From: a virus
Lineage: Duplodnaviria > Heunggongvirae > Uroviricota > Caudoviricetes
Strand: one strand, 5' to 3'
Length of the DNA stretch: 9,537 nucleotides
Virus record (IMG/VR): IMGVR_UViG_2740892218_000005
Shown here: piece by piece, positions 8,512 through 8,826 of the stretch
How positions within the stretch are numbered: position 1 is the first letter of the stretch
Layout of the letters: each line of letters starts with the position of its first letter
The notes under the pieces: generated by a model
The model's database searches: none
What the model saw: the letters and a program-made list of their open reading frames with translations, nothing else
What the model was told of the DNA's origin: nothing
Program-made: the position numbers and the translations under genes

Positions 8512-8826
8512 TTAGCATTTTTTTGACCGCGCGTTTCCGGACGTATTCTGTTCTCCTGTCCCTTTATATCGTCGGAATATCCGCCGCTCTTCAAATCCCA
8601 TTCCCAACTCAGAATGTAGTCTGTTGACCGCTTGCTTTATTTCTGTCAGATTCACCGGTGCAACCGAAGTCCGGCGCGCCTTACGCAAACACTCTGCTCG
8701 TTTCTGTGCCGCGATTTTTCTTTTCTGATCATCACTTAGCTGTACCATCACTTTTGCCCATCGTTCAGCCGCTCTCCGGTACAGTCCTTTTTTCTCCAGA
8801 CATTCAGCCAGGTGATCATGTAGCAT
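8512..8826 (-). CDS. PerC/Pch-family-like small transcriptional regulator (putative prophage moron), 104 aa
   Basis: ORF MLHDHLAECLEKKGLYRRAAERWAKVMVQLSDDQKRKIAAQKRAECLRKARRTSVAPVNLTEIKQAVNRLHSELGMGFEERRIFRRYKGTGEQNTSGNARSKKC; ATG 8826..8824 preceded by GGAGGT with 6-nt spacing. The N-terminal motif (HDHLAE-LE-KGL-RRAA-RW) and the ~100-aa size match my recollection of PerC and the prophage-encoded Pch proteins of EHEC. Family call is from memory of the motif, not a search. Confidence 0.55.
   Translation of the reverse strand: MLHDHLAECLEKKGLYRRAAERWAKVMVQLSDDQKRKIAAQKRAECLRKARRTSVAPVNLTEIKQAVNRLHSELGMGFEERRIFRRYKGTGEQNTSGNARSKKC

Follow-up and report, generated by a model that had tools for sequence, protein, structure and literature searches.

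We examined a 9,537-nucleotide stretch of the virus record IMGVR_UViG_2740892218_000005 (hereafter the window), focusing on an open reading frame (ORF) on its minus strand that encodes a PerC/Pch-type protein and is referred to here as pch. Read along the minus strand, the window holds the 3' end of Rz, the pch ORF, a DUF3950-type ORF that is convergent with it on the plus strand, cos, and then Nu1, A, W, B, C/Nu3, D, E, FI and FII (Table 1). Positions 1–8353 match phage lambda DNA at 96% identity, as does the Nu1 region, and this homology ends at 8353. The pch ORF starts with ATG, has its stop codon at 8512–8514 and is read in the same direction as Rz and Nu1. The ORF itself has a GC fraction of 0.48, with 0.31 in the 503 nt upstream, 0.37 across the segment 8354–9329 and 0.57 across the head genes (45–7807). 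The first-pass annotation of this DNA had described a good Shine-Dalgarno (SD) sequence, an orientation shared with the late operon and AT-rich surroundings unlike the head genes, and each of these is borne out: a GGAGG motif lies 6 nt before the ATG, and by alignment is also present at pchA and pchB of Escherichia coli O157:H7 Sakai and in Escherichia albertii, pch lies on the strand of Rz and Nu1, and the surrounding DNA has 31–37% GC compared with 57% in the head genes.

The pch ORF scored 144.4 bits with the Pfam PerC family (PF06069; E 1.3e-42; cut-off 22.6 bits), with residues 1–89 aligning to positions 1–89 of the 90-position profile. Using BLASTP and global alignment, we found the protein to be identical to Sakai PchA at 99 of 104 residues (95%) with no gaps, while global identity was 96% to PchB, 48% to PerC of enteropathogenic E. 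coli (EPEC), 40% to PchE and 28% to PchD. The reference proteins were taken from the annotated O157:H7 Sakai genome (PchA, PchB, PchD and PchE) and from pMAR7 (PerC). The proposal that this is a 104-residue ORF with a PerC-like N-terminal motif and size is therefore upheld, both by the family profile and by the BLASTP comparison with the Pch proteins of enterohaemorrhagic E. coli (EHEC). Under the published group definitions (PMC6265319, PMC5931665), and because identity is 95–96% to PchA and PchB but only 28% to PchD and 40% to PchE, the window ORF is unambiguously a group-1 Pch by sequence. Its location in a lambdoid prophage, 3' of the lysis genes, is that of group 1. Membership of group 2 or 3 was considered and is ruled out by the identities to PchE and PchD.

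A library-wide HMMER search for the PerC family yielded 78 cluster representatives, and residue conservation was calculated from 71 of them. R18, A19 and W23 are invariant and D4, A7, L10, E11, G14, R17, A20, R22 and C46 are conserved in at least 90%; window pch retains all twelve. It differs from PchB at four residues (I38V, S54P, A56S and I83V; window residue first) and from PchA at five, the same four and L6V, which is particular to PchA. At the DNA level 11–12 nt differ from pchA and pchB, falling in six synonymous and four to five non-synonymous codons, with no frameshift. We also considered that pch might be an ORF arisen by chance, or what is left of a decayed gene, within AT-rich intergenic DNA; nothing could be cited for this but its shortness and the abundance of spurious overlapping ORFs in the ORF list. 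However, the full-length profile match, the strong SD, the terminator, the identity of the ORF across several genomes of two species and the intact frame relative to pchA and pchB leave this reading with a vanishingly small probability; the profile match and the conservation already refute it.

Table 1. Features of the window around pch, with the basis on which each was assigned.
Feature	Position	Strand	Basis
pch coding sequence, 104 aa + stop	8512..8826	-	ORF list; Pfam PerC E 1.3e-42; PchA 95%, PchB 96%
SD sequence GGAGG, 6 nt 5' of pch ATG	8833..8837	-	direct reading
AT-rich 5' intergenic region (31% GC), Rz stop to pch; presumed promoter/regulatory region	8827..9329	-	GC; alignment
19-bp tandem repeat, unit AATATAAATAACAAACAAA (+ strand)	8913..8991	.	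Tandem Repeats Finder (TRF), 4.2 copies, 95% matches
Intrinsic-terminator-like hairpin (A5-GCGACU ... AGUCGC-U5), bidirectional	8449..8475	.	RNA fold
Non-lambda cassette, 976 bp: pch + upstream region + terminator	8354..9329	-	lambda match ends at 8353; 37% GC
Rz spanin gene, 3' part, running off the window; end of lysis cassette	9330..9537	-	Pfam Phage_lysis E 7e-20
DUF3950 / YlcI-YnfO-type ORF, 45 aa, convergent with pch	8206..8343	+	Pfam DUF3950 E 1.6e-10; phrog_949 E 1e-22
cosN position, 12-nt cohesive end (window GGGCGGAAGGCG; lambda GGGCGGCGACCT)	7985..7996	-	anchored comparison
Nu1 terminase small subunit, start of head operon 3' of cos	7262..7807	-	Pfam Phage_Nu1 E 3.9e-101

The lambda annotation places bor, together with ybcV-like and ybcW-like ORFs, in the interval from Rz to the DUF3950-type ORF beside cos, confirming an earlier remark that the lambda Rz-to-cos interval carries accessory genes such as bor, and Sakai prophage Sp8 likewise retains bor in this slot. 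Where lambda and Sp8 carry bor, the window carries pch, as an insertion between conserved phage modules that begins where the 96% lambda match ends (8353) and has 37% rather than 57% GC. This low-GC cassette agrees with the first-pass description of an accessory ('moron') gene between the lysis genes and cos, and pch is cargo that a lambda-like prophage carries as an accessory gene in its Rz-to-cos slot. The moron region of lambda is alike in its slot, between Rz and the DUF3950-type ORF with cos, and in a GC content under that of the neighbouring head genes, and bor, like pch, is a host-affecting gene that is dispensable for lytic growth. However, the two genes and their proteins are unrelated, and lambda bor opposes the late operon whereas window pch is co-oriented with it.

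The novelty that had been claimed for the gene context does not hold, because Sakai Sp11 has the order Rz (ECs_2183), pchB (ECs_2182), Nu1 (ECs_2180) and terminase, which is that of the window, pchA (ECs_1091) in Sakai Sp4 lies directly 3' of Rz/Rz1 and is followed by IS629, and the arrangement recurs in 661 of 5426 complete E. coli genomes, with one place covering at least 80% of window positions 7800–9537 (Rz-pch-DUF3950-cos-Nu1, 1.7 kb). Annotation at these 661 places reads 'PerC family | YlcI/YnfO | lysis protein | DNA-packaging protein'. The lysis-pchA segment of Sp4 lies in inverted orientation with respect to the terminase genes, with IS629 and ISEc8 on its flanks (positions 32130–37400 of the extract), and pchA there has lost its linkage to cos and Nu1, which pchB in Sp11 and window pch keep. 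Sakai PchA, PchB and PchC resemble the window protein in their length of 104 residues, in gap-free identity (95–96% for PchA and PchB), in the same SD and in an alignable upstream region, while the lysis module and cosN of the Sakai phages are unlike those of the window. Published work already covers the gene and its subgroup, as well as the prophage slot it occupies and how it acts, and window pch is a new instance of a known gene in its usual place.

The exact pch protein is the RefSeq entry 'MULTISPECIES: PerC family transcriptional regulator [Escherichia]', found on 485 contigs, and several complete genomes encode it in the order holin-lysozyme-Rz/Rz1-PerC-DUF3950-Nu1-A. Its carriers include E. 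albertii RM10705 (CP045690), E. albertii 2012EL-1823B (CP030783) and E. coli O63:H6 377323_2f (NZ_CP039404); CP030783 also gave the best DNA match to the window (97.8%), and no full-length window match above ~97% was obtained among complete E. coli RefSeq genomes, which points to a further strain of the E. albertii / E. coli lineage as the origin of the window. The DNA of the pch ORF showed no difference at any of 315 positions in E. coli 377323_2f and several E. albertii, and a single difference in one of nine loci. Because the pch ORF is nucleotide-identical while the phage DNA around it differs by 2–3% between these genomes, the comparison suggests that the two species have recently exchanged the pch cassette, or the prophage. 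The allele is that of the E. albertii / E. coli O63:H6 lineage and not of O157. With regard to LEE (locus of enterocyte effacement), E. coli 377323_2f is positive for eae, tir, espA, stx2f and bfpA (PMC8534868), and the LEE was located at pheU in all E. albertii genomes examined, including RM10705 and 2012EL-1823B (PMC10673567).

A protein scan of a genome-contig collection returned two loci only, in the E. albertii type strain (89%) and in Escherichia sp. MOD1-EC7003 (75%). The MOD1-EC7003 homologue (positions 156–467 of the extract) has an internal stop at codon 98 and is C-terminally truncated relative to group-1 Pch. Two very long proteins, of 7614 and 723 residues, matched the central part of Pch in seven and four stretches, respectively (E 1.3e-10 and 2e-4), and these matches may reflect repeat or coiled-coil similarity rather than homology.

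By analogy with PchA, PchB and PchC, we consider it very probable that window pch is group-1 Pch cargo of a lambda-like prophage that would act as an activator of LEE1 (ler). Gene integrity, family and subgroup, position, terminator, conservation and the presence of the identical protein in genomes that are LEE-positive in the literature were all observed here. DNA binding and H-NS antagonism, LEE activation and SOS induction are drawn from published work on PchA, PchB and PchC. Expression of ler::lacZ in K-12 rises at least 4-fold with PchA, PchB or PchC each, while PchD and PchE have little effect (PMC5931665). Activation of LEE1 by Pch is wholly dependent on silencing by H-NS/StpA/Hha/YdgT, and both in vivo and in a reconstituted system Pch reduces occupancy by H-NS at LEE1 and changes the nucleoprotein complex there (PMC4764244). 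Furthermore, chromatin immunoprecipitation (ChIP) found PchA on LEE1 DNA with or without H-NS and StpA (PMC4764244), and pchA and pchB receive regulatory input from LrhA and from butyrate/Lrp/LeuO, among others (review, PMC4456613). Given its near-identity with PchA and PchB, the window product would be expected to bind DNA that is AT-rich and covered by H-NS, both at the LEE1 (ler) promoter and at other horizontally acquired virulence loci, and at LEE1 this binding would relieve silencing by H-NS/StpA/Hha/YdgT. The result confirms a routine annotation. The prophage carries a copy of the LEE virulence island's master upstream activator, which bears on how pathogenic its host (probably E. albertii or an atypical EHEC or EPEC) could be. 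It also looks intact, and with the pch ORF nucleotide-identical in E. coli and E. albertii this makes it relevant to the mobilisation of a virulence regulator between Escherichia species.

Several points weigh against this assignment of function. Window pch differs from PchB at four residues and from PchA at five, substitutions that may affect its activity. The host is not visible in the window, and the presence of LEE and ler in it is inferred from relatives that are ~97–98% identical. A tool scan and a relaxed scan upstream of pch gave no convincing sigma-70 promoter; of the expression signals of its own that would mark a moron, the terminator hairpin is present and promoter-like sequences are weak matches only (8/12). 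A structural model of pch contains no helix-turn-helix (HTH) or other recognisable DNA-binding fold, and the contact by which H-NS would be displaced consequently lacks a structural explanation. Finally, effects within the PerC family vary: PchE represses curli (PMC6265319), and a PerC homologue borne on a phage-inducible chromosomal island (PICI) represses LEE1 (PMC11773190), unlike the group-1 activators.

This last point opens the alternative that window pch is a PerC-family protein whose main role is other than LEE activation, in curli, flagella, biofilm or acid resistance, or is a repressor. PchE represses csgD, curli and biofilm independently of ler (PMC6265319), the PICI PerC-like protein silences LEE1 (PMC11773190), and many non-LEE binding sites of Pch are on record (review, PMC4456613). 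However, those proteins are only ~40% identical to window pch, which is 95–96% identical to the tested activators PchA and PchB with every conserved residue kept, and in PchA the broader targets add to ler activation and do not replace it. We therefore regard a non-LEE or repressive main role as quite improbable, and LEE1 activation as the preferred function.

Expression of pch in the prophage can be outlined from its flanking DNA. The 503-nt upstream region aligns along its length with the upstream regions of Sakai pchA and pchB, and window positions 8942–9537 are 88% identical to the pchA locus by blastn; a literature search on the pchA promoter and transcription start gave nothing useful. 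The hairpin downstream has a perfect 13-bp stem and a minimum free energy of −17.8 kcal/mol over an 86-nt stretch (z = −2.75), and lies 37 nt beyond the pch stop, between the convergent pch and DUF3950 genes. As modelled, it can probably terminate transcripts of both, although an automated terminator scan did not report it. An Rfam scan of 7600–9537 at a permissive threshold found no known small RNA or leader, with sub-threshold chance matches only. In a lysogen, transcription of pch would probably start at a promoter of its own, within the conserved AT-rich 500 nt upstream, and end at the hairpin, and pch genes are expressed in uninduced lysogens (PMC4764244, PMC4456613). After induction, Q-antiterminated late transcription from the lysis genes should read through pch. 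Transcripts of group-1 pch rise late after SOS or prophage induction, significantly for pchC only (PMC5931665), which fits the position of pch 3' of, and co-oriented with, the Q-dependent late transcript and lends literature backing to the first-pass suggestion that the gene may be expressed on induction.

Only two leads go beyond the existing literature, one of which is the tandem repeat in the upstream region and the other a similarity between the PerC and ANR families. The repeat sits ~105–165 nt upstream of the pch ATG. Three full copies are present in the window and one to two in nine related E. coli and E. albertii loci, while Sakai pchA and pchB differ in having none, and BLAST alignments to several relatives break within the repeat tract, at 8950–8953. 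This element of variable copy number lies in the presumed regulatory region of pch and could set Pch dosage, and through it LEE expression, at different levels in different strains.

The structural model mentioned above was made with AlphaFold2 from a 71-sequence alignment and has a mean predicted local distance difference test (pLDDT) score of 85. It consists of helices at residues 5–13, 16–29 and 33–50 (these three at pLDDT 96–98) and at 61–73, followed by a low-confidence tail from ~80. A sequence search of the PDB found no related solved structure, the best match being a designed tetratricopeptide repeat (TPR) protein at E 1.5, and Foldseek comparison of the model with the PDB and BFVD gave nothing at E ≤ 0.001, with generic TPR- or MIT-like helical hairpins only.

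Profile comparison pointed to the ANR family, three-helix anti-activators that bind AraC-family regulators and H-NS (PMC4983702; PMC5570504). The pch ORF scored 14.0 bits (E 0.033) against the NCBIfam model ANR_neg_reg (NF033650), which is below the 32-bit cut-off. However weak singly, such matches recur: 66 of 71 diverse PerC-family representatives matched NF033650 at E ≤ 0.1 (best 1.1e-7), while other families recurred at most twice. Ten members taken singly (EPEC PerC, PchA, PchD, PchE and six others) scored 13.6–22.1 bits, all under the cut-off, and the register was consistent across these and the window ORF, with PerC residues ~3–52 on positions 7–54 of the 54-position ANR profile. Using hhalign, the PerC profile gave no meaningful alignment with Aar alone; against a profile of six ANR sequences, fetched from plasmids, it aligned over 45 columns in the same register with E 0.0029 but a probability of only 10.6%.

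Some conserved residues fall in the same places. The loss-of-function residues A14, E18 and A26 of Aar (PMC4983702), together with W30, which is our own mapping of the conserved ANR tryptophan, align with PerC-family A7, E11, A19 and W23. The ANR consensus has seven conserved residues, A10, E14, A22, W26, A29, W43 and R47, distributed on three helices (PMC4983702); four coincide with PerC (A7, E11, A19 and W23), the second alanine and second tryptophan are not kept, and the arginine aligns with K42 in window pch and with R in the PerC-family consensus. A Trp-to-Cys spacing of 23 residues is common to both families. Two ANR papers (PMC4983702 and PMC10148876) make no mention of PerC, and a 2025 paper notes ANR matches 'further down' for the PICI PerC-like LEE1 repressor (PMC11773190). 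On these alignments, remote homology between PerC and ANR is plausible, with the chances about evenly balanced.

Members of the ANR family such as Aar of enteroaggregative E. coli 042 and Cnr of enterotoxigenic E. coli share with Pch a small, all-helical build, three helices with the A/E/A/W pattern in register, and modulation of the H-NS-dependent silencing of virulence genes. They differ in that Pch has ~50 further residues, forming helix 4 and a basic tail, in that ANR proteins are anti-activators while Pch is an activator, and in that contact with H-NS is known for Aar but none was found for Pch (PMC4764244). A combined proposal, in which PerC/Pch proteins are a C-terminally extended ANR branch that relieves silencing through direct contacts with H-NS-family or AraC-family proteins, without using a DNA-binding domain of its own, and in which, separately, the upstream repeat tunes Pch dosage, is tentative and in our view doubtful.

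A related alternative to DNA-directed anti-silencing is that Pch works mainly by protein contacts, using an ANR-type three-helix module to bind H-NS-family or AraC-family regulators, and not by sequence-directed DNA binding. It would accommodate the recurrent, in-register ANR matches, the fall of the essential Aar residues on A7, E11 and A19 beside the conserved W23, the direct binding of Aar to H-NS (PMC5570504), and a model that has three confidently predicted helices and a fourth but lacks an HTH. It could also draw on gene neighbourhood, as perC shares the perABC operon with the AraC-type gene perA, and Sp4 and Sp11 each carry an AraC-family gene. However, every ANR score lies under the cut-off (14–22 against 32 bits), the hhalign probability is low and Aar alone gave nothing; PchA did not co-precipitate H-NS, ChIP places PchA on LEE1 DNA independently of H-NS and StpA, and H-NS binding at gadE was unaffected by PchA (all PMC4764244). 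No AraC-type gene was seen in the window or in the prophage of the closest complete genome. We accordingly rate action mainly through protein contacts as unlikely, a little more so than the combined proposal above, and retain DNA-bound antagonism of H-NS as the expected mode of action.

The AraC-family genes of Sp4 (ECs_1087, positions 28803–29390 of its extract) and Sp11 (ECs_2191, positions 10932–11519) each encode a regulator of 195 residues; both are situated between Q and the lysis genes, some kilobases upstream of pch. PMC3378721 was considered as a source on these genes and rejected, as the regulator it describes is RgdR. A relative of the window's prophage encodes an XRE-cupin protein elsewhere.

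Within the wider family, EPEC PerC shares with window pch the Pfam family, the N-terminal motif AE.LE..G.YRRAA.RW and published activation of LEE1/ler, but differs in having 48% identity and 89 residues and in being encoded on a plasmid (pEAF/pMAR7), in the perABC operon with the AraC-type PerA; LEE expression depends less strongly on PerC in EPEC than on Pch in EHEC (PMC4764244). PchD (from SpLE1), PchE (from Sp7), YfdN of K-12 and the PICI PerC-like proteins likewise belong to the PerC family and are carried on mobile elements. PchD and PchE differ from window pch in their identity (28% and 40%), their length of 89–90 residues, little or no activation of ler and their other genomic slots.

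Of the neighbouring genes, the Rz coding sequence is represented by its 3' end (9330–9491 and beyond), annotated as 'lysis protein' in the closest genome. The DUF3950 ORF is part of the lambda-homologous DNA, has a counterpart in lambda and is annotated in relatives; its match to NCBIfam YlcI_YnfO_N (E 0.0024) was under the cut-off. The ORF reads against the late operon immediately beside cos, and both lambda and K-12 cryptic prophages have it too. At cosN, six bases of the cohesive end are changed relative to lambda in an otherwise 96% lambda-like packaging region. The lambda form GGGCGGCGACCT is kept in lambda and in Sakai Sp4, Sp8 and Sp11, while GGGCGGAAGGCG is present in each of the nine E. 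albertii / E. coli O63:H6 relatives as well as in phage PhiR46_1.

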